Positions 1 through 46,717 of a stretch of DNA of 46,717 nucleotides are shown here, in pieces; within the stretch, counting starts at the first letter, position 1, and each line of letters opens with the position of its first letter. The stretch lies in IMG/VR virus record IMGVR_UViG_3300028591_000002, positions 1-46,717 of that record. One strand, 5' to 3'. The stretch is from a virus. Lineage: Duplodnaviria; Heunggongvirae; Uroviricota; Caudoviricetes. Both the position numbers and the translations under genes were made by a program. The notes under the pieces are model-generated. The model was not told the DNA's origin and did not search any database. It saw nothing but the letters and a program-made list of their open reading frames with translations.

Positions 1-1176
1 GATAATACTGCTTTATAGAATTTTAATTATTTAGCTAAAGATGGATTTACTAAAGATGAAATATCAAGGCTTAGTGGTAATAAATTTTTAGAAGGAATAA
101 CATTTGACGAAGACCCTAATAATAGTGATACATTCTTAGCTAGAAAAACTCCTGGAAAATCTAACTATTAGGATATTTTAAATTCAACAACTACAAAACC
201 AGTTGCTGAACAAACTACACCAGGAATATTACCTGGGGGATTTAAAAAAGCTACTATTAACTCTGCTTAGATAAATCCAATAAATGAAATACAAGAAATA
301 AATTAGGATGTATTAAACAAAAATAAATATAAGGGTTTAAAATTAGAATCTGCTAAAAAAGGAAATAAAATTATGAATAAATATCAATAGGGTGGAGATA
401 TGGCTCCACAATAGGATGACATGCAATCCCAAATAATCCAATTAGTACAAGCTGCTATGCAGGGGGATGAACAAGCAGCACAATAGATTGAATAGATAAT
501 GCAAGCTGCTCAACAAGGAGACCAACAAGCTGCTCAAATAGCACAAATGATTCAGGAAGTTGTTCAACAAATGTAGGGACAAGCTGCTCAAGCTGCTAAA
601 CAAGGTGCTAAATTAAATTACATTAAAAGACTTAGAGGTGAATGTAAACCTGATGAAGAATTAGTTTACTTTAAATCTGGTGGACAAGTTTGTAAGAAAT
701 GTCAAAAGAAAGCAATAAAAAAAGCTTGTGGTGGAAAGAAAATGTTTAGAGCTGGAGGAACTTTATTAATGAATGATATTCTTACTGAAATTTATGCTAA
801 AGGTGGTGGTCTTCATACTGCATTTGGTGGTAAAGTATCTAATCCAGAAGGAAGATATGGTGGTCGTAAAGCATTTAATCCAAATGGAACACATCAATTA
901 GACCAACATGATAAACCTAATAAATTTACTGCATTTGGTGATGAAGGTAGAAAAAAACCTACAAACTCTGGATTAACAGGACATCATGCAACAGGAAAAG
1001 CAGGTAGAATGCAAAATAAACAAAGTGCTGGAACAACTTATAAAGCAACAGCATTTGGAGGAGATAAACAAAAAAGAAGTCATAAAGGAACAGGTGGAGT
1101 GCCTCGTTCTGGATTAAGAACTATTCCTGGATATCCTAAAGGACATGGTGGAAAAACTGGAATAGGCAGAATTTAA
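1..1176 (+). CDS. 5'-partial low-complexity protein with about 10 xxGG motifs, a Gln-rich helical segment, a CxxC cluster and a basic C-terminus (probable internal virion/cargo protein)
   Basis: Frame 1 is open from base 1 to TAA 1174-1176 when TAG=Gln. It contains KYQ*GG, the Q-rich MQSQIIQLVQAAMQGDEQAAQ*IE*IMQ, CKKC, and FRAGG/YAKGG/AFGG. A possible internal start lies at 373. Confidence 0.75.
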
Positions 1177-4058: not shown

Positions 4059-4311
4059 GGAAGTATACAATAAAAAATATATAGGAACCCTTAGAATAAC
4101 AAAACTTAAGCCTATCGGATATAATGTTCGATTAGGAATGAATAATGATGATAAACCTATAAATATTTCAGCACAATTGGATGCTGAAAATTTTATAAAG
4201 TTTTTTAAATAGGAAATAAGAGATAGAAGCTGGAATCATGTTAAATGGTTTTTAGGCTATAAAATGTATCCAGATAATGGTAGTCCAATTAATTCAAAAT
4301 GTTGCCAATGA
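4018..4311 (+). CDS. Small hypothetical protein (97 aa) between TerL and portal
   Basis: TAG 4210 read through; ends ...SKCCQ TGA, overlapping the portal start (ATGA). Confidence 0.75.
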
Positions 4312-6509
4312 AAAAAGATCAAGAGTTAATTGATTATACTAATAAGACAATAGCAGAACTTGTGTATCCTAAGTGGAACTTACAAAAGGCATATAATTAC
4401 TACAATGGTATAATGGACGCCGATTAGTTTAGATACTTGGAAGAAAACTATGGAATTGGTAATCCAACTTCTGTAGAATTTATACCTTTAATAAAAAAAC
4501 ATGTTGATGCTTTAGTTGGAGAGTATTTAGGAACTCCAATCTTACCAAAAGTATCATGTAAAGATTCTGCTACTTTAAGTAAAATAAATAGAGAAAAAGA
4601 ATTAAAAATAGCTAATGACGTATTAGAATTTCTCTAGAAAAGATTGAAAAATAAATTATTATAGTTTATACAAGAAGGTCAATAGAATCCAATTGTAGAT
4701 ACTTCTATACAACAAGACATAGATAATCTAAAAGAAGAGTTAGATTAGAATTTTATATCTGAATATGAAATAGCTGCTCAAAATGTTGTTGAATATTTAA
4801 TGCAGTCTAAAGAAACAGATATGCTTACTAAATTGAAAACTCTTATATTAGATTTATTAATTACTGGGTATACTTTTTTTAGAGCAAAACCAACAGTTGG
4901 AAACAACAATGTTACTATAGAAGTATTAAGTCCTTTAAATACTTTTCCAGAAGAAAATCCGGAATCTCCTTATATTAAAGATTCAAAGAGAATAGTAATT
5001 AGAAAATGGCTTACTAAACAGGACATTTTAAATACTTATGGAAAGAATTTAAAAAAGAAAGATATTGATCTAATTAAAGAATCGTGGCAAGATGCCTTTG
5101 ATACTTCTACCTATTACGTAAGGTCTTTTACTAATTCTAATGGAACTCCAGCAACTGAAGGTTTATAGGCCGGAAGGGAAATAGTTCCAGGATATCCAAC
5201 GGGTCCTTATAATAGTTATAATTATAAGTTAATTCCTGTATATGAAGTAGAGTGGATAGAAACAGATAAAGACTTTGTGATGCAAAGATACAGAACTGTT
5301 AGAATAGGAGAAAGTATTTATATTCTTTATGGTAAAGATGATAATGTAATAAGGAGTATGGATAATCCAACAAAGTGTTCTTTATCTGTAAATGGAGTAT
5401 ACTTTATTAATAGAGGTTCTAAACCTTATTCTTTAGTATTAGCTTGTGCTTCTTTACAAGATAAATATAATATCCTACATTTTTATAGAGATAATTTAAT
5501 AGCTAGTTCTGGAAATGTTGGAGATTGGATTGATGTTTCTATGCTTCCTAAATTCTTAGGAGATTCTTTACCAGAAAGATTACAAAAATTCTTAGCTTAT
5601 AAAAAATCTGGAATTGCTCCAATTGATACTTCATAGGAAGGTAGGTTGGGTGCTGGACAAGCTCCTATAAATACTATCTTTAATGGATATGATGACACTG
5701 TTAAAGCTCCTATGATTCAAGCTATTCAAATAGCTATAGATTCTATAGAGCAAACAGCCTCTTCTATAACAGGAGTATTTAGAGAAAGATTAAACGGAAT
5801 ACAACAAAAAGATGCTGTAACTAACGTACAAACTTCTATGAATAATTCCTTTACTATAACAAAATAGTATTATCATTAGATGGATTTAGTTGTAGAAGGA
5901 ATTCTTTCAGACTCCTTAGATGAAGCCAAAAGAGTATTTAAGAATGGATTAACTGGAACTATAATCTTAGGAGATAAATATTAGAGAGTTTTTACAGCTC
6001 TTCCAGAGTATTTTACTCTTAGTGATTATGATATTCATATTGTTACTAGTGACATAATAACACGACAATTAGAACAATTAAAGCAATTAGTTCCAGATTT
6101 AATTAAATCTTAGATAATGGGTCCAGATTTAATTGTAGAAGCAGTAACTACTAGAAGTATTTCTGATTTTAAATATAAAGTTCTTAAAGCAATTAAAAAG
6201 CAGAAAGAAGAAAATAATCAATTAGCAGAATTACAATAGTAGAATGATTAGATGAAACAAGAATTATAGAAATCACAAAAACAAATAGAACAACTTCAAG
6301 ATAAGGTAGAAAGATTAAATGAAGCTAAAATTAAAATTGAAGCTGAAAAGAATCAAATGCAAAATGAAGTAGACTGGTTCAAAGCTCGTACTGAACGTAC
6401 TTATAAAGAAGCTGTAGCAAAACAAGATGCTAGGAGAACTGATATTGAATTCCTTCAATTGCATGATGGAAATCCTTATAATGATGAAGTTGTAAATGCT
6501 AGAACATAA
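4308..6509 (+). CDS. Portal protein (733 aa)
   Basis: Track ORFs 4437, 4800, 5277 and 5646 are in one frame. Crassvirales-portal-like segments (AYNYYNG, PLIKKHVDALVGE, SSITGVFRERL) and a C-terminal Q/E-rich coiled coil; position after TerL. Confidence 0.88.
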
Positions 6510-26388: not shown

Positions 26389-27492
26389 ATGGGAAATGAA
26401 GTAATGGACATTGATTAGTTAAATTTTGACGAAGAAGATTATACTCAAGAAGAATAGACAGTTGAAGAGAATTCATTTGGAATTCCTGATAACTATTCTA
26501 AAGAATGGATGGAAGGAAATAATACTCAGACAACTGTTTAGGTGGAGGACCCTTCTTTAGAAGAAAAAGATGGCGAAATTTCTGAAGATATATTAACTTA
26601 TCTCTTAAAAGAGAAAGGAATTAAAGACCCTTCTCAGATTAAATTTGAAGGAGAAAACGGAGAAATTGAAACAAGAGATTGGAATGATTTATCTTTAGAA
26701 GAGTAGTATAATATACTTAATACTCCAAAAGATACTTCTGATACAGATTTAGATGACCAAGAAATCCAGCTAATTAATCAGCTTAGACTTAGAGGAATTA
26801 CTCCAGAACAATTCTATGAATTAGCCAAACAACAAGGAGTACAAGAATATACTGCGCAATTACAGGATGATACTCCTTATGTAGTTGACGACTTTACTGA
26901 TGAAGAATTATTCTTATATGATTTAAAGGCTAAGGCTGAAGATATGAGCGATGAAGAGTTATATAAAGCTTTAGAAGCTGCTATGACTAATGAAAGTGCT
27001 TTTAAGAAACAAACGGCTGGTTTAAGAGAAGAATATAAAAAATTAGAATAGGAAGATAAGGCACAGCAATAGATTTTTGAAGCACAACAAAGACAACAAG
27101 AATTTGTAGAATTTCAAAATCAAATATACGATAATATAGGAACTATTCAAGATATTGGTGGAGCTATAGAATTGGAAGATGAAGATAAGAATCTAATTGC
27201 TGAGTTTATTTTAGGTAAAGATAATGCAGGAATAAGTTATTTAGGTAAGGCACTTAATGATCCAGAAACATTAATTAAAATGAGTTGGTTTGCATTAAAA
27301 GGCGAAGAAGCGTTTGAAGATATTTAGAATTATTATGCAGAACAGATAAAATTGGCTAGACAAAATGGATATAAAGAAGGTTTAGCTGCGTAGGGGAATC
27401 CTCCTACTGTCAAAGTATAGAAACCATCTAGGGAGAAGAAAATAAGTGCTTTCTCTTCAAGTTCTTATGGTTCTATTGACGATTTAGATTAA
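26389..27492 (+). CDS. Highly acidic protein preceding MCP; scaffold-like (367 aa)
   Basis: Absent from the track; open with TAG=Gln; D/E-rich and helical; ends SIDDLD TAA; conserved position before MCP in Crassvirales. Confidence 0.8.
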
Positions 27493-27518: not shown

Positions 27519-28940
27519 ATGATTGTAGCGAATTTTGTAACAAATCGTCCTACTATGAGCGATACTAGGACGTATGAAGATTTTTATAAGTTCTTAGGAA
27601 CTAAACCTCACAAGTTAGGTGTTGTAAGTAGACTTTACCCAGAATTAACTGCAACTTATCTTACTGAATCTTTAAGAAATATTTTCTATCAAGACAGAAA
27701 GAGTGGAAATAGATATCAGTCAATTGATTCTATGTACTTTGAATGGGAAGTTGAAACAAATTATATTAAGAGAGTTGAATTTGCAGCTGTTCCTGAAGGA
27801 ACTGGTGCAGATGGTTCTGAAATTACTATGGCTTTCAAAGAAAGATATTATGAAAAATATGATATCTTTAAGATTGACAAAACTATGCAGCAATGTATGG
27901 TTGTAAGTAGACCAATTAGAAAGGCTGACAACTACTGGGAAGTACAAGTTAGACTTATTGATAATGACTATAGTTCAGTATTAGATACTTCAGGATGTCA
28001 AGTAGGTGATACTACTAGATTCCAATCTAATGCAATGCCTGAACTACACGAAGAAGGATATATCAAATATCAATCTAATATTGAAAGACATCGTAACTAT
28101 ATCACAACTCACCGTGTTGATGATAGTTATTCTGCTCTTTATGCAGCTCACGAAAATACATTCATTAGTATTGCAGAAGGTAAAGGACAAGGAGATTTAA
28201 CAGAAACTATCTATAAGATGGATAAGAAAGAGAAAGTTCTTCTTGATAACTTCCTCTATGTAAGAAACAATGGTTTACTTTTCAACAAATGTAATGTTGA
28301 TGTTAATGGAAAACCAACTATTGTTGATCCAGATACTAATAGACCTATCTATATTGGTGATGGTATTATTCCACAAGTAGAAAGATTTGCAAGTAAATAT
28401 GCATTTGCTAAACTTACTGTAGATGTATTTAATACTGTAATTTCTACTATGAATGAAAAAGCTAAGAATCCTACTGGAAACAAGTATATGTTCATTATGA
28501 ATGAAAGAATGTTCTATCTTGTAAATACAGTTCTCGGAGACTGGCTTGCTAAATTCAAAACTGATGGAACTTACTTATATAGTAAACAAGCTAATGGTTA
28601 TGTTAAAGTTGGTGCTACATTCCAGACTTATGAATTCATGGGTAACGAAATCACATTCAAAGTTGATAGAACATTCTCTAGAGAGTATGGTTTCGAAAAA
28701 GGTTATGCACTTTGCTTAGACTTAACTGCAGACAGCACTGGTAATGAACCTCCAATTCAAATGTTCACATTAAAAGGAGCTGACTTCATTACTAATAAAT
28801 TCCCAGGAGTTGGTGGACTTGATGGTATTAGCTCTGGTATTGTTTCTAGTCCAGTAGCTGGTTCTAAGTTAATCAACTGGGGTTATAGTGGTGTTGGTGT
28901 ATTCAACCCATATAGAAGTTTCATATTGAGAGAGATTTAA
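27519..28940 (+). CDS. Major capsid protein (473 aa)
   Basis: Crassvirales-type MCP sequence (FEWEV, IGDGIIPQ, GATFQTYEF) of expected size and position; followed by a hairpin; no TAG. Confidence 0.9.
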   Translation: MIVANFVTNRPTMSDTRTYEDFYKFLGTKPHKLGVVSRLYPELTATYLTESLRNIFYQDRKSGNRYQSIDSMYFEWEVETNYIKRVEFAAVPEGTGADGSEITMAFKERYYEKYDIFKIDKTMQQCMVVSRPIRKADNYWEVQVRLIDNDYSSVLDTSGCQVGDTTRFQSNAMPELHEEGYIKYQSNIERHRNYITTHRVDDSYSALYAAHENTFISIAEGKGQGDLTETIYKMDKKEKVLLDNFLYVRNNGLLFNKCNVDVNGKPTIVDPDTNRPIYIGDGIIPQVERFASKYAFAKLTVDVFNTVISTMNEKAKNPTGNKYMFIMNERMFYLVNTVLGDWLAKFKTDGTYLYSKQANGYVKVGATFQTYEFMGNEITFKVDRTFSREYGFEKGYALCLDLTADSTGNEPPIQMFTLKGADFITNKFPGVGGLDGISSGIVSSPVAGSKLINWGYSGVGVFNPYRSFILREI

Positions 28941-40390: not shown

Positions 40391-42385
40391 ATGAGTGTTT
40401 TAAATAATGCTATAAGCACTTTTACTAATAATAAAAGTAATTGGGGCAGTGTAGCTTCAGCAGGAGCCACTTTTTTAGGAAATAAATTAGATTCTAAGGG
40501 AGATAGTAATGAAGGTTAGGTTGTAGGAGGTTTAATATCTAGGTTAGGAGAATCTAATCCTTGGGGTTATGCTGGTGGTTATTTAGGAATGGGTTTAGCT
40601 AATAAAATAACTGGAGGAACCGATGGAATGACTACAACAGATAGACTTCTTGGAAGTAAAGGTATTTCAGGAGCAGCTTTTGGTGCAGCAGCTGCTGCTG
40701 GGGGACCTGTTGGTTGGGGATTAGCTGGAGCATATGCTTTAGGTTCTATTATTAATTCAGCTACAGGAAAAACTACTATGAAAGATTCTTTCAATGACTT
40801 TATGAATAGCGGAAAGTTATCTAATTTAGACTCTGCATATTATAGAGATTCTTCTTTAGATAATTTATATGATAAAAAGTATGGAGGATTTTCTCGTAGA
40901 GCCTATAAAAAAGCCCAAGCAAAGCTAAGAAGAGATTAGTGGGAAAAAGCTACAAAGTTAGATATTAATGAATTAGCAAATATAGGAAAAACTAGAGCGG
41001 GAATGGTAGATGCTAATTATAATAATTATTTATTAAATATTAATGGAGGATATATTCCTACATAGATGGGAAAACATGGCTTAGATGTGTCTCGTTTATT
41101 GAAATCTAGGGAAATAATATAGAAATACACTAGTAAGCCTAAAGAATTAGAGAAATTTCAAAAAGGAGGAAAACCAGAACTTAAAGAAATTAAATCTATT
41201 GAATCTTATTATGACCCAGATAATAATATAATTTATTATACCGATGATGAAGCTTTAGAACATGAAAGATTTCATGCAAATCCTGATTTGGAATACTTAG
41301 AAAAACTAAAACCTTTTTATGAGAATCTAAATGATGATAAAATAACTTGGTTAGGTGGAGATTTAAATTTCGTGAAAAGATTAGATAATGATCCAGGACA
41401 TTTTTATAATCCTGAAGAAATAGGAGCTAGAGTAAAAGCAGCTAAATTTAGAACTAAAGGAAATAAATATACTCAAGAATTCTTCAAAAATTTAAGGAAT
41501 AATGAAGAGTAGTATGGAGATAATATGAGAGATTTATTACATATGTATAATGATAGTATCCTTTCTAGAATATTTAATATAGATGAGAATATAAAAGTGT
41601 TTCAGAATGGAGGTACAATGAATGTTATTCCTGAAGGAGCACTTCATGCTAGAAAACATCATATGGCAGATGATGAACATATTACTAAGAAAGGAATTCC
41701 TGTAGTTGATACTGATGGTAATCAGTAGGCTGAAATAGAATGTAATGAAATAATCTTTAGAAAAGAAGTTACTGATTAGTTAGAAAAACTTAGAAAAGAG
41801 GGATCTGACGAAGCAGCTATTGAAGCTGGTAAATTACTTGCTCAAGAAATAGTAGAGAATACAGAAGATAGAACAGGATTAATTAATACTGTTGTAGGGG
41901 AAGAAGAAAAATTATTAACTTAGCAAGTTCCAATGGCTTAGAAAGGCATAGAAATTCCTAAATTAAATAAAGATTTAGAAGAAACGAAAGTTCCAGAGAA
42001 ATTTGACTCTTTTGAAGATTTATTAAAATACTTGCGAGAAACAGGAAGAGATAGTACTGAAGACTATGACTTGGAGAAAGCTTATAGAGATTTTGAAGTA
42101 TTTAATGACTGGTTAGAAGAAGAAAGAAAAACTCCTGGAAAAGGACATTGGAAAGATAAATATAAAAAACCAAATCATATAACGTATAGTAATGAATCCA
42201 TTTTAGGAGATAATCCAAAAGAAAATGGAGGAATTTGGGCTAAAGACGGAAATGGAGAAGATATATTTATCGTGAGTCCTTATTTATAGAAATTACATAC
42301 TTTATGGGAATATCTAAAATATTTTGAAGATGAACCTATTTCTATTATGTATGATGGTGTAACTTATAAAACTAAGAAAAAATGA
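40391..42385 (+). CDS. Multidomain cargo/ejection protein (664 aa): Gly/Ala membrane-like N-terminus, zincin domain, cargo domain, C-terminal KKPNH domain
   Basis: Track ORFs 40589, 41288, 41525 and 42032 are in one frame; GAAFGAAAAAGGPVGWGLAGA; HERFH...NPEEIGAR; position after muzzle. Confidence 0.78.
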
Positions 42386-42951
42386 TAAAAATAAGATTAG
42401 GAGAAAAAGAATATAATGTTCAAGAAGCCAAAACTACAGAAGAGATGTAGAAAGGGCTTATGGGAGTTAAAGAACTTCCACAAGATGAAGGTATGATATT
42501 CTATTTTGATTAGCCTCAACTAGTAGAAATGTGGATGCGTGATACTTTAATTCCTTTAGATATCATATATATTAATGAAGATCAGGAAGTTACAGCAGTA
42601 GAGTAGGGATAGCCTAATGATGATACTCTATTAGGACATGAAGATACTATGTATGTAGTAGAAGTTAATGCTAATTCTGGAATATAGGTTGGAGATACAT
42701 TAGAATTTGAAGGGGATGAAAATAAAGAAATTGTAATGTAGGTTCTGGCTCCTGATGGAACTTCTTAGATGGATTTAGTGGGAGGGGAAAGAATAGTTTC
42801 TAGAAAAGAAACAAAAGTTCTTATTAGAAAAGCTTTTAAAGCCTATAAATCTCAAGAAGATAAAGATTATAAATCTCTTGGAAAATATATGTTTAAAGTC
42901 TTAAATAAATAGGATTCTAGAGAACCTGAATATGTAAAAAGTCCTGATTAA
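42382..42951 (+). CDS. DUF192 (COG1430) family protein with C-terminal extension (189 aa)
   Basis: A.T.EEM*KGLM...DEGMIF.F...MWMRDTLIPLDII.I...YVVEVNA..GI*VGD, the DUF192 pattern; absent from the track. Confidence 0.85.
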
Positions 42952-42980
42952 TTTTTAAACGTTAAAAACTTTAAAAAGTT

Positions 42981-43011
42981 TTTGATTTTAATAAAAATAA
43001 TTTTATATTTA
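42981..43011 (+). promoter_or_regulatory. Candidate Bacteroidota sigma promoter (-33 TTTG, 19 nt, -7 TAnnTTTa)
   Basis: TTTG 42981-42984 and TATATTTA 43004-43011 in an intergenic gap. Confidence 0.4.
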
Positions 43012-43050
43012 TAAGGATAGAATTAATATTAATTTTAAACGAGAAAATTT

Positions 43051-43368
43051 ATGAGAATTATTAACAAATTTCAACAAGGTGGACCGATGGGTCCAGAAGC
43101 AGCTCCTGCTGATACGGGAGCTGGAGAAGCATATGTACCAGAAGATGCTGGTGGAGCTGGAATGCCAGAAGGTGGCGAAGATCCAATTATGCAGATTGCT
43201 CAAGTAGCTATGCAAGCACTTGAATCACAAGATTGTGAAGCCGCTATGGCTGTATGTGAAGCTTTTGTTCAATTAATACAGCAAGGTCAAGGCGGAGCAC
43301 CAGAAGAAGAAGCTCCAGCTGGTGAACCTGTTTACCGCAACGGTGGGGTTTTATCTAGAAGAATTTAA
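43051..43368 (+). CDS. Small acidic protein bracketed by FQQGG and YRNGG motifs (105 aa)
   Basis: Intact ORF; 10 Gln, none encoded by TAG; candidate promoter upstream and terminator downstream. Confidence 0.8.
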   Translation: MRIINKFQQGGPMGPEAAPADTGAGEAYVPEDAGGAGMPEGGEDPIMQIAQVAMQALESQDCEAAMAVCEAFVQLIQQGQGGAPEEEAPAGEPVYRNGGVLSRRI

Positions 43369-43381
43369 TTAAATTTTAATG

Positions 43382-43420
43382 AAGGGAGCATACTAATACT
43401 TGTATGTTCCCTTTTCTATT
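43382..43420 (+). terminator. Intrinsic terminator
   Basis: AAGGGAGCATAC-taatactt-GTATGTTCCCTT followed by a T-rich tail. Confidence 0.75.
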
Positions 43421-43425
43421 ATTGT

Positions 43426-46400
43426 ATGGCAGTTTATATAAGAAAATTACAATAGGGTGGAAACGTAAATTCTCCAAAATTCCAAATCTATGATACTAAA
43501 GTTAATTTAAAAGACTATACAAATGCTTTAATTTAGAATTTTTAGACTTTCTATGATTCCTATAAAGGTATATGGAATAACGATTAGGAATAGGAAGTTT
43601 TAAGACAACACGAATAGTATATCAATGATTTAAATAATGGTAGAATTAATAGTTACCAAGGACCAAGTCAATCTGGAGATTATGCTACCTTTGTAGACAA
43701 AATTGCTCAGATAACTGGAATATATGCAAATCAAGCAAAAAATAAAAAATTCACTAAAGATTCTATAATGAAAGACTTTTATAATGAATTTTTTGCTGGG
43801 CAAGAAAATCCAGATTTTCAATCTTTTTTAGATTTAGATGAGGTAGTTACAGATGAAACTGGGCGTTAGACTAGGGGTGTAAAAAACAGAGTTAACGCTT
43901 TATTAAACTTTTTGAATGAGAATTATCTATCAAAATATGAAGATGCTGATGAATCTTTAGGTGGGATAGAAAATGTAGCTTTTAAGATTGATAGATTAAG
44001 AAAGGCTTTAGCCGATGGAAAATTGAATAATGAAGATTATGCCGCAGCAGCTGCTTTAGGATTTAATCTTCGAGCATTATTATAGTCAGGAGTCCCTGAA
44101 CAATCTCTTTTAAGTCCACAAGAAAAAATGCAAAAGGAATTAAATACTTGGATGTCTAGAGATAAAGGTGATTTACTTTTAAGTTTAGGAAATAATTCCT
44201 CTATAAAATCTAATGATTTATTAGAAACTTATTTTAGAAACGATATAAAAAAATATTTTGAACATTTAACAAGTTTAGCTAAAAATTTACAAGATAATGG
44301 ATTAGATTACTATAATGTAGAAAATTTAGCTGGAACATAGTATTTAAAAGATGTTCCAAATGGTTCTTATATTCAATCAATGCTTGATGCAATGGTTAAT
44401 TTTAGAAATCTTTTAGGAATATCTTTAAGATAGGATAAATATGGAGTATATGGAATAATTCCAGAATCCTTTAATCCTAATACAGGAACTGTACTTGCTT
44501 ATTATCCAAATAATAAACAAATAAGAAGTATAAGAATTTGGAATTAGAAAGACTTATTAGAATCTTATTATCAAAGGGCTTACCCAGAACTCTTTTAGGA
44601 AATAAGAAGAGGACAATATGGATTTAGAGTTCCAGAATCAGTTAATTAGTATACTGAAGAAGAACAGATTCTTTTACAAAAATTAAATCAACTTCAAAAT
44701 GAAGTTCCTTAGGAAGAAACTTCTGAAGAACAAACTAAAATACCGCAGGAAGAATATTTAAATGCTGTTCCAAATAATTGGGGTAAAAAAGAATGGGCAG
44801 AAATAGGTTCTATAGCTGCAAGTATAGCCTCAATATTAGACCCAGAACCTTTCTCTGCAACTGGATTAGGTTTAGCGGGAACATTAGCTCATGCTTATAA
44901 TTTAGCTGGAGATAATGATGGCTTTACCAAAGGTGATTTAGGAAATACTCTTTTAAATGTAGGATTTGATATTGCAGGAGCTATTCCAGTTTTAGGAGAT
45001 TTTGCACAAGCAAAGAAAATAACAAAGGCAATAAAAACTTTAGGTGCTCCAATATTAGGTCTTTTAGGAGCATCTAGAATACCTGGGGCAGTAGAATCCG
45101 CTAAAAAAATATTTACTGATGAAAAATTAACAATACAAGATTATAGAAATATTGCCGAAGGTTTAATAGCTGTATTAGGTGCTAAGAATTATTGGACAAA
45201 TAAGTATAGAAGCAGAGCTTTAGATGCTGCTCCGGATTTTAAACCTCAAACTCCAATACAAAAGTCTCAAGTGGAATTCCATAATACTTTAAGAAATCTT
45301 GGAAAATCTAATGAGAAACCTATTGGTTGGTGGGAATAGTTTAAAAAGAGTCTTAATCTTGCAGAACATTATAGAAGTAAATTTGGAGCAACTACCACTA
45401 CTACCAAAAAGCAATAGAATTCAGACCCTATTTGGCAAACTCCTGATTGGTTAAAAAATACAGGAAGTAGACTAAAGAAAATAGTAGGATTTAAAAAGTC
45501 TGGAGGTATTATTTTAATGCAAAATGGAGGTTGGTTTGAAAATTTCAAAAAAAGATATGCTCAACAAGCATTAACTGGTTGGGATAATACTAAAGACCAA
45601 TCTAGAGCAGGAGAAAATTTAAAGGGCAATGGACATTATAATGCTGGAAGTCTACAAGAAGCTTATAATAGAAATGTTGCTTATATTAATGATTTTGATG
45701 CTGTAGGAAATGACCTTCAAGATTATTATAACTCTAAATATTCTACTAATTCTTTAGAGGATTATGTAAATAATTACAATTCTGATATAGATAGACTAAC
45801 TGGACATTGGAATGTTAATAGAACTTATGGTTCTACTGATGCTCGAGACCATAATAGACTATTTAGAGCTATGTATACTAGAAGAAGTAGTTAGAACTCT
45901 AATTCTCCTTATAATATTGGATATCAAGATGATATTGAGGATATTGAAGGTTCTTCTGCTTGGCTACGTAGAGCAGACAATTATGAAAATCTTTGGGATG
46001 AAACTTCATTAGAAGATAAATTGAAGAGAATTCATAAAATAAAGCTAGGAAATGGTCAAGAAGGTTTTGTTTATAAGGAAAATAATGGAAAAATAGGAAT
46101 AATTGGAGATGAATAGGTTAAAGATTTAATAAATAAATATCAAGGAACAACTCCAGAATCTCCTACTTCTCCAAATATACCTTCTACTTCTAGTGGTCCT
46201 TTAGTTGAACCTTCTAAAGGTCAAGAAATTAAACCTGATAATGATTTATGGGAAAAAATTACCCCATCTTTAATAGCCTTACAAAGATTGTATGGAGATA
46301 TTAATGCTTCTAATAAAAGAACTAAGGAATATTTAAATTCTCTAATAACTCCAAGTTTAACTCCACCTAGATTTGATAGATAGGTTTATGGAGATTATGC

Positions 46401-46717
46401 TTTAAGAAAGAATTATGAAGATTAGGGAGCACAAATAAATTCTATGGCTAATAGAGCTACTACTTCTGATGCTAAATTGGCTTTCTTACAAAGACTTGAA
46501 GGACAAAATGAAGCTAATAAATTAAGAGAAAAAGGTAAATTAGCCGATAATGAGAGGATTAAAGAAACTGCAGAAGCTTCATCTAGACAAGCTAAAGAAA
46601 ATGTATTTACTTCTAATCAAGTAGCTAATGAAAATAGAAAACTTTCTGCTGATATGGCTCGCCATAAGGCTGAAACAATTGCTTACACTGATGCTGCTAA
46701 TAGATAGAGTATAGATA
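43426..46717 (+). CDS. 3'-partial large cargo/ejection protein (>1090 aa)
   Basis: Frame 1 appears open with TAG=Gln to the window end; LQ*GG, KKSGG and MQNGG motifs; hydrophobic Gly/Ala segment near 44790-45190; C-terminal charged helices. Confidence 0.8.

Follow-up and report, generated by a model that had tools for sequence, protein, structure and literature searches.

A Gly-Gly peptide motif at the termini and module joints of five late proteins in a TAG-recoded crAss-like phage

The stretch of DNA analysed here (the window) comprises 46,717 nucleotides (nt) of a tailed virus of the class Caudoviricetes, IMG/VR record IMGVR_UViG_3300028591_000002, and spans the opening 46.7 kb of a contig of 178,291 bp. 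The two ends of the contig overlap by 127 bp, and the genome is therefore complete and circular. Read with TAG as glutamine, the plus strand of the window is a tight late operon, in which the gene for the muzzle protein is followed by genes for proteins of 664 amino acids (aa), 189 aa (DUF192), 105 aa and 1,204 aa, with a 597-aa gene lying just past the end of the window and the C-terminal part of a 707-aa gene at its beginning (Table 1). A short sequence motif built around Gly-Gly recurs in the 707-, 664-, 105-, 1,204- and 597-aa proteins, hereafter the carriers, which together make up 3,277 aa. We read it as a short linear peptide tag, placed in segments predicted to be flexible, where modules of these proteins begin, end or join. 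A preliminary description, made from the sequence alone, had drawn attention to such a motif and offered two mechanisms for it, capsid targeting and cleavage at the double Gly; these are still the two leading readings.

A logo of 204 distinct instances reads [IVL]-x-[KE]-[FLY]-[KQ]-x-G-G-x-[MILV]-[NSE], with hydrophobic residues at positions -5 and -8 relative to Gly-Gly, and the consensus used overall is [IVL]-x-[KE]-[FYLM]-[QK]-x-G-G-x-[MILV]. For counting, we used a strict pattern, [FYLM][QKR]xGG, that was defined after the data had been seen. The five carriers contain 10 matches to it where 0.84 are expected (the maximum in 300 shuffles was 4), which confirms, with TAG read as glutamine, that the motif recurs in this set of proteins. 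The five giant RNA polymerase (RNAP)-like proteins, with 10,361 aa, contain 1 match where 0.98 are expected, and forty other late proteins, including the major capsid protein (MCP), portal, muzzle and fibres, contain 1 in 13,675 aa where 1.44 are expected; two strict copies in the roughly 24,000 aa of non-carrier late proteins are a chance-level yield. The muzzle protein has seven GG dipeptides and not one copy of the motif. Early proteins, about 23,900 aa, contain four strict copies. The motif is real and, in this genome, confined to a specific set of five proteins. The looser pattern [FYLMA]xxGG of the preliminary description, observed 15 times where 6.7 are expected and thus enriched only about 2-fold, was dropped as much less specific, and was replaced by the strict pattern together with the position logo. 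Because copies of the motif use different codons, its conservation is at the level of the peptide and does not reflect a DNA repeat.

Individual copies proposed in the preliminary description fared unequally. Seven of the nine listed for the 664-, 105- and 1,204-aa genes are real and correctly placed (KFQKGG at 41153, FQNGG at 41600, KFQQGG at 43066, YRNGG at 43333, KLQ(TAG)GG at 43444, KKSGG at 45493 and MQNGG at 45517), while the other two, "A*KG" near 41936 (actually AQKG) and "GQYG" near 44611, contain no Gly-Gly and do not count as copies. About ten copies had been suggested for the gene at 1-1176; its part in the window does contain 12 GG dipeptides, but only four of these fit. The observation that capsid, portal, muzzle and fibre proteins lack the motif holds. 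As a mark of cargo proteins in general the motif fails, for neither the five giant RNAP-like proteins nor the DUF192 protein has it, and not every carrier belongs to the cargo locus, the 707-aa gene being found upstream of the terminase gene instead. The label "cargo proteins" is too broad because the giant RNAP-like cargo proteins go without the motif. Judged from synteny with crAss001 gp45-47 alone, we infer that the carriers are internal virion proteins. Searches of the five carriers against Pfam and PHROGs found no family, and no description of the motif was found in the literature on crAss-like phages that deals with proteolysis, Gly-Gly or proteomics.

Since the pattern was fitted post hoc, conservation in relatives provides a confirmation that is independent of the counts in this genome. 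In seven relatives the gene order is muzzle, C1-like protein, DUF192 protein, proteins of about 105 aa, 1,200-1,670 aa and about 600 aa, and then a giant protein. Downstream of the muzzle gene these seven syntenic loci contain 37 strict copies where 5.1 are expected (maximum 11), and there is none in the 20,618 aa that make up the muzzle and the proteins upstream of it. The preliminary description had named missing conservation in homologues, and equal frequency in other proteins, as findings that would speak against it; instead, the motif is kept in relatives of the carriers and is enriched in the five carriers only. Every relative whose DNA reaches the 105-aa gene has the N-terminal tag of that protein (one contig, L004, ends earlier). 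The N-terminal tag of the ~600-aa protein is present in five relatives; in L007 the protein is fused and the tag is found at an internal joint, and L004 again ends too early. Where carriers stand alone, the tag occurs within 5-25 residues of the N-terminus or 2-9 residues from the C-terminus.

The fused case is instructive in itself. In L007 (14511-20662, from a bovine metagenome), the orthologue of the 1,204-aa protein is split just after a tag, so that an 896-aa piece ends in ...WYKQGGNLNL, and the C-terminal piece is fused to the orthologue of the 597-aa protein in a 1,154-aa protein with KKYQQGG at residue 556, which is the joint. This fission and fusion, together with the variable HExxH cassette described below, show the tag behaving as a module joint that survives rearrangement. 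In crAss001 gp45 the motif shows no enrichment (3 copies against 1.96 expected, P=0.31), nor does it in crAss001 gp45-50, and it is not evident in Suoliviridae cr125_1 downstream of the putative muzzle gene (annotated "YomR-like"). The motif is accordingly restricted to a lineage and is not order-wide.

The clearest view of the tag comes from the 105-aa protein, which has one copy at each end. An AT-rich gap of 100 nt lies ahead of its gene, and a terminator hairpin comes after it. Homologues of the protein fall into 137 clusters. In an alignment of 77 sequences, the only invariant columns are M1, Q8, G10 and G11, all within or ahead of the N-terminal tag, while P93, G98 and G99 of the C-terminal tag are conserved in at least 90% and the spacers vary in length. 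Gly-Gly of the N-terminal copy is invariant, and Gly-Ala, in the C-terminal copy, is the sole variant tolerated at the second Gly. AlphaFold predicts helices at residues 45-80 with a predicted local distance difference test (pLDDT) score of about 90, and renders both tag-bearing tails as coil with pLDDT 50-60. Conserved islands of this kind within predicted disorder look like the signature of a short linear motif. Alignment shows proteins that evolve fast except in the tag, which is their most conserved part; the 105-aa and 597-aa families are examples. The 105-aa gene is probably a separate, highly expressed transcription unit inside the recoded operon.

The residue just after the aromatic or aliphatic position of the motif (P4, counting back from the second Gly) is divided nearly evenly between Gln (79) and Lys (81) among the 204 instances. 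The two types, Q (KFQxGG) and K (FKxGG, YRKGG), are sorted by position, with N-terminal copies nearly always of the Q type and C-terminal copies of the K/R type. Such a distribution could be read as covalent chemistry, either a transglutaminase-like cross-link between Gln and Lys or a Pup- or ubiquitin-like ligation through an exposed C-terminal Gly-Gly, and the C-terminus of Pup, ...YVQKGGQ, looks similar to the motif. Any exposed polar position, however, would show alternation of Gln and Lys; the copies are N-terminal, internal or followed by further residues, leaving no free C-terminal Gly-Gly; and Pfam scans, which for the early proteins covered the best 25 of 39 families, returned no transglutaminase, PafA/Dop-like or E1/E2-like family. 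Covalent chemistry is pure conjecture, and we consider it very improbable. A Pup- or ubiquitin-like modifier in particular was rejected, with 2-9 residues following the C-terminal copies, a small protein that is a helical hairpin rather than a beta-grasp fold, and no ligase family in the Pfam lists, which for the early proteins gave the best 25 of 39 families.

The 664-aa protein, encoded directly after the muzzle gene, has more than 3,700 homologues, and nearly all of the 120 listed carry between one and nine copies of the motif. A typical copy, I-E-K-F-Q-N-G-G-S-V-N, directly precedes a conserved core, NVIPEGALHARKHH...GIPVVD...QQAEIE.NEIIF, which has many invariant columns and is the most conserved stretch of the family. 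AlphaFold predicts a confident domain at aa 260-400 that contains HERFH, with copies of the motif at 256-260 and 404-408 bracketing it. As the preliminary description had it, copies are found at N-termini and C-termini and at domain junctions; the N-terminal placement holds for three or four proteins. Residues 401-453, although the most conserved, are predicted to be unfolded, which suggests that they may fold on a partner. The HExxH module occurs in 36 of the 120 homologues and in four of the seven relatives. In the 664-aa protein, as in those relatives with which it was compared, the module directly precedes a tag and the core; on these comparisons, the cassette and one flanking tag come and go as a unit. 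It has no Pfam match. Its best structural matches are weak, namely anthrax lethal factor (LF) and PPEP-3 at Z 3.7-3.8, IrrE at Z 3.5 with 26% identity, and also ArdC; all are zincins, obtained via re-alignment with Z<=3.8 and with Foldseek E>2. Foldseek with the whole 664-aa model found nothing at E<=0.001. A search of the phage genome collection with the 664-aa protein returned two unannotated relatives, MT835470 and MT835492, and a search of the viral contig collection returned no confirmed relative. One 1,047-aa homologue, P0082, has intein and LAGLIDADG domains (PF14890 and PF14528, from precomputed Pfam annotation).

These models bear on a purely structural explanation, in which the motif is a passive joint, a helix C-cap or turn followed by a Gly-Gly hinge, that travels with mobile modules and insulates their folding, with neither partner nor cleavage. 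In the 664-aa model, helices at 250-257 and 397-405 end at the Gln of the motif and leave Gly-Gly in coil, the hydrophobic residues at P5 and P2' would fit a capping or hydrophobic-staple pattern, and gain or loss of the HExxH module with one flanking tag is what a joint of this kind would allow. A hinge does not explain the invariant Q-x-G-G in the disordered N-terminal tail of the 105-aa protein (77 clusters), and a tag five residues from a start codon has nothing to insulate. Moreover, other multi-domain late proteins, such as the fibres, the muzzle and the giant proteins, do without the motif. We judge a passive hinge unlikely.

Table 1. Genes, tags and other features of the window, with the gene that follows it. 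Positions are window positions unless marked as genome positions.
Feature	Position	Strand	Description
707-aa gene, 391-aa C-terminal part	1..1176 (genome 177217..1176, across the circular junction)	+	Embedded small-protein module
Tags of the 707-aa gene	376-396; 664-684; 739-759; 787-807		NKYQQGG; VYFKSGG; KMFRAGG; EIYAKGG
Major capsid protein (MCP)	27519-28940	+	Pfam Crass_capsid
Muzzle protein, 1,865 aa	34792..40389	+	Pfam crAss_MUZ, E=4e-23; landmark of the cargo locus
664-aa protein	40391..42385	+	Slot of crAss001 cargo protein C1; Gly-rich N-terminal region, HExxH module (aa 260-400), conserved core (aa 401-503), C-terminal domain (aa 531-660)
Tags of the 664-aa protein	41150-41170; 41594-41614		EKFQKGG, before the HExxH module; KVFQNGG, before the core
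HExxH module	41165-41590
Conserved core	41591-41900
DUF192 protein, 189 aa	42382..42951	+	Pfam PF02643, E=1e-24; no motif; syntenic in all relatives
105-aa acidic protein	43051..43368	+	TAG-free gene; N-terminal tag, central helical hairpin, C-terminal tag
Tags of the 105-aa protein	43063-43083; 43327-43347		NKFQQGG; PVYRNGG, then VLSRRI
Terminator-like hairpin	43381..43414	+	13-bp stem, then T-rich tail; directly after the 105-aa gene
1,204-aa protein, first 1,097 aa	43426..46717 (gene ends at genome 47040)	+	N-terminal tag and tandem internal pair
Tags of the 1,204-aa protein	43441-43461; 45487-45507; 45511-45531		RKLQQGG; GFKKSGG; ILMQNGG
597-aa gene, just beyond the window	genome 47046-48839		N-terminal tag KMYQKGG

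The remaining carriers differ in how firmly they hold the tag. The 707-aa gene has several shorter [FY]GG variants besides its four full copies, and all 77 longer homologues of its product have an internal copy of the INYFQEGG type together with several copies of the YKKGG type; some of them also contain the peptidoglycan-binding domain PG_binding_1. The gene keeps its place upstream of phrog_16390, terminase and portal, even in a phage that uses the standard code, and the phage genome collection contained no match for the product of the gene at 1-1176. In the 597-aa family the N-terminal tag is retained down to 26% identity. The N-terminal tag of the 1,204-aa protein is kept in four of the seven relatives, degenerate in one and absent from two, and its internal copy is weakly conserved. 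Tandem copies separated by 8-9 residues also occur (FKKSGGIILMQNGG and LPFFKEGGNIELFQNGG).

Reading of the motif depends on the genetic code. With TAG recoded, the window has 25 long open reading frames (ORFs) against 13 with translation table 11, which fragmented the frames and was rejected; recoding of TGA gave no gain in long frames. TAG codons occupy three Gln positions of the motif (in the copies at 376-396 and 43441-43461 and at genome 47055-47075), one of them the conserved P4 Gln of the 597-aa family, and homologues have Gln at these positions, which is independent, comparative support for TAG as glutamine. A tRNA search limited to the window found none. Late genes, with TAG as glutamine, run on the plus strand from about 174.9 kb round to 80.1 kb. 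In the early block, on the minus strand from about 80 to 175 kb, most long frames are open in the standard code, and several lengthen when TAG is read through. Pfam matches in the early block include a YkuD-type L,D-transpeptidase domain, an OmpA-family domain, an SPFH/Band-7 protein, a sigma-70-like factor, two RNA ligases, an anaerobic ribonucleotide reductase and an adenylosuccinate synthetase. Terminase and portal were identified through PHROGs, the portal at 4299-6509; a scaffold-like protein lies at 26389-27492 and ring-like proteins at about 31.9-33.3 kb. The MCP is about 22% identical to capsid proteins of classified Crassvirales, an identity so low that it indicates a divergent, large-genome crAss-like lineage.

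Maturation cleavage is a reading of a different kind: a phage or packaged protease would cut after Gly-Gly, trimming N-terminal propeptides and C-terminal tails and cutting multi-module proteins into pieces, perhaps in combination with a targeting role such as that of the T4 capsid-targeting sequence. Conservation across the 204 instances is concentrated on the non-prime side (P8, P6, P5 and P4) and on the invariant Gly-Gly, and Ala as the sole variant of the second Gly is what a pocket for small residues would accept. The tags bracket an HExxH module with weak matches to site-specific zincin proteases, and the classic layout of a polyprotein is a protease between its own sites. Known phages offer precedents, since T4 gp21 (LxE) and phiKZ gp175 (S/A/G-x-E) cleave internal head proteins; there too one short signal is found on unrelated internal head proteins, at N-termini and, in phiKZ, also at internal junctions, and one consensus recurring at N-termini and junctions is what the carriers show. 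The T4 and phiKZ signals, however, end in Glu instead of Gly-Gly, those phages have a recognisable prohead protease, where here none was found by Pfam and PHROGs in the late proteins or among the best 25 of 39 Pfam families of the early ones, and in T4 the capsid protein is also cut, whereas the MCP of this phage has no motif.

Gly-Gly itself is a familiar protease site, as in the adenain site (M/I/L)XGG-X, the GG-X site of African swine fever virus (ASFV) pS273R, the double-glycine leaders cut by C39 peptidases and the tails of ubiquitin and SUMO. The motif resembles these in its invariant Gly-Gly, with Gly-Ala tolerated, and in a hydrophobic residue at a fixed distance upstream. It differs in having hydrophobic residues at P5 and P8, where adenain, PLpro and ubiquitin have P4 and C39 leaders have P4, P7 and P12, and its copies are attached neither to a beta-grasp domain nor to a secretion leader. 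A double-glycine leader/C39 system was rejected, the hydrophobic residues being at -5 and -8 instead of -4, -7 and -12 and copies being also internal and C-terminal; no C39, clan CE or ABC family appeared in the Pfam lists (for early proteins, the best 25 of 39 families).

The search for an enzyme weighs on the other side. No protease family was found among the 32 late proteins by Pfam and PHROGs, and none among the best 25 of 39 Pfam families of the 67 early proteins, with the proviso that divergent proteases could escape such scans. The only candidate in this genome is the HExxH module of the 664-aa protein (Z 3.8 to zincins). That module is missing from 84 of the 120 homologues and from three of the seven relatives, all of which keep the tags, and it cannot be the general enzyme because tag-bearing homologues exist that lack it. 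Relative L003 has a 207-aa gene (L003:1323-1946) with a weak match to Peptidase_C1 (papain-like) two genes upstream of the muzzle gene, a point for cleavage. No counterpart of the L003 gene was seen in the window. Removing 5-10 N-terminal or 2-9 C-terminal residues would also serve no evident purpose unless the tag had first done another job. Published papers on crAss001 mention no cleavage, protease or tag (PMC10172136). The mass spectrometry of crAss001, in papers that contain no intact-mass data, leaves room for cleavage because it used trypsin digests of a single gel band.

Polyvalent proteins provide a further comparison: these are packaged proteins made of swappable cassettes, with an embedded HExxH module proposed to process them (Iyer, Burroughs, Anand, de Souza and Aravind 2017, PMC5512222). 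Swappable cassettes are found here as well, in the variable HExxH cassette, the one to nine tag-bounded modules and the PG_binding_1 domain of 707-aa homologues, and the processing of packaged polyvalent proteins by a zincin, as predicted in that study, favours cleavage. Their description defines no junction peptide (PMC5512222), whereas here the junction tag stands out as the principal feature and is borne by small single-module proteins as well. As far as sequence comparison can tell, maturation cleavage at Gly-Gly in these virions is possible but rather unlikely.

We tentatively prefer, with a little less than even confidence, to see the motif as a shared docking or loading tag that is possibly trimmed later. 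A short amphipathic helix turn closed by Gly-Gly would bind one shared receptor surface in the procapsid or the tail barrel, for which portal, ring, muzzle, scaffold and the capsid interior are candidate sites. Unrelated modules, whether separately encoded or fused, would thereby be recruited to the particle and held in it, and the tag would afterwards be trimmed or left uncut. Tags so close to the ends of stand-alone proteins imply that release of domains from a polyprotein cannot be the sole role, and tandem copies 8-9 residues apart would raise the avidity of a binding tag. A common cause would then underlie the copies at termini and in tandem, the disorder and the confinement to a single set of proteins, an account whose chances we put at nearly one in two. 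The absence of a protease family among the late proteins also counts for docking. In crAss001, cryo-electron microscopy shows gp45 held by short segments docked on the portal, on ring proteins and near the muzzle, among them an unassigned 14-residue helix (Bayfield et al. 2023, PMC10172136).

Several points weigh against docking. The receptor that it invokes is a postulate. A strict need for two small residues fits the S2-S1 pocket of a protease better than a helix cap. The crAss001 analogy is indirect because the motif is not enriched in gp45. Precedents for a consensus that recurs at N-termini and junctions, T4 gp21 and phiKZ gp175, are cleavage sites. In part of the 1,204-aa family the N-terminal tag can be dispensed with, as it is absent or degenerate in three of the seven relatives, and the giant RNAP-like proteins, presumably packaged too, have no tag at all.

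A bolder form of the docking reading is a portable loading code, in which I-x-K-F-Q-x-G-G-x-hydrophobic at the end of a protein would suffice for recruitment to the receptor, and the abundant 105-aa protein would be a bivalent adaptor or scaffold of the cargo mass. That protein has a tag at each end, a TAG-free gene and its own terminator. We offer the loading code as a speculation that has perhaps one chance in three.

Comparison with gp45 extends beyond the manner of its docking. Like the gp45 gene, the 664-aa gene comes next after the muzzle gene, in an order repeated in seven relatives; its product likewise has a Gly-rich N-terminal region; and its core aligns weakly with gp45 441-498, inside the portal-bound domain 425-552 (hhalign E=0.12 over 51 columns). 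Short docked segments hold gp45 in the virion, and the most conserved stretch of the 664-aa protein is predicted to be unfolded on its own. The two differ in that the F-x-x-G-G pattern is not enriched in gp45, and neither phmmer nor a 34-sequence profile of the 664-aa family found a gp45 chain in the PDB. The structural atlas reported no detectable gp45 homologue in the epsilon group (PMC10172136); a candidate for the missing counterpart in this lineage is the core of the 664-aa protein (aa 401-503).

How crAss-like phages select and retain the proteins that they inject, including channel formers, enzymes and a giant RNA polymerase, is the question that the tag addresses. The sole structural atlas, that of crAss001, resolved short docked fragments of one cargo protein (PMC10172136). 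A signal of 8-10 residues common to otherwise unrelated internal proteins is a concrete and testable handle on the problem. It also allows cargo or ejected proteins to be picked out in practice among the many uncultured relatives in which homology searches are of no help. The link of the 664-aa protein to gp45, positional and by weak similarity, concerns a protein reported as undetectable in the epsilon group (PMC10172136). If the tag is a cleavage site, these phages would have an unrecognised maturation protease. If it is a loading code, the gp45 segments on the two sides of the crAss001 portal could be re-examined as separate docked or cleaved pieces, and a major group of gut phages would package its cargo by a rule that is both simple and transferable.

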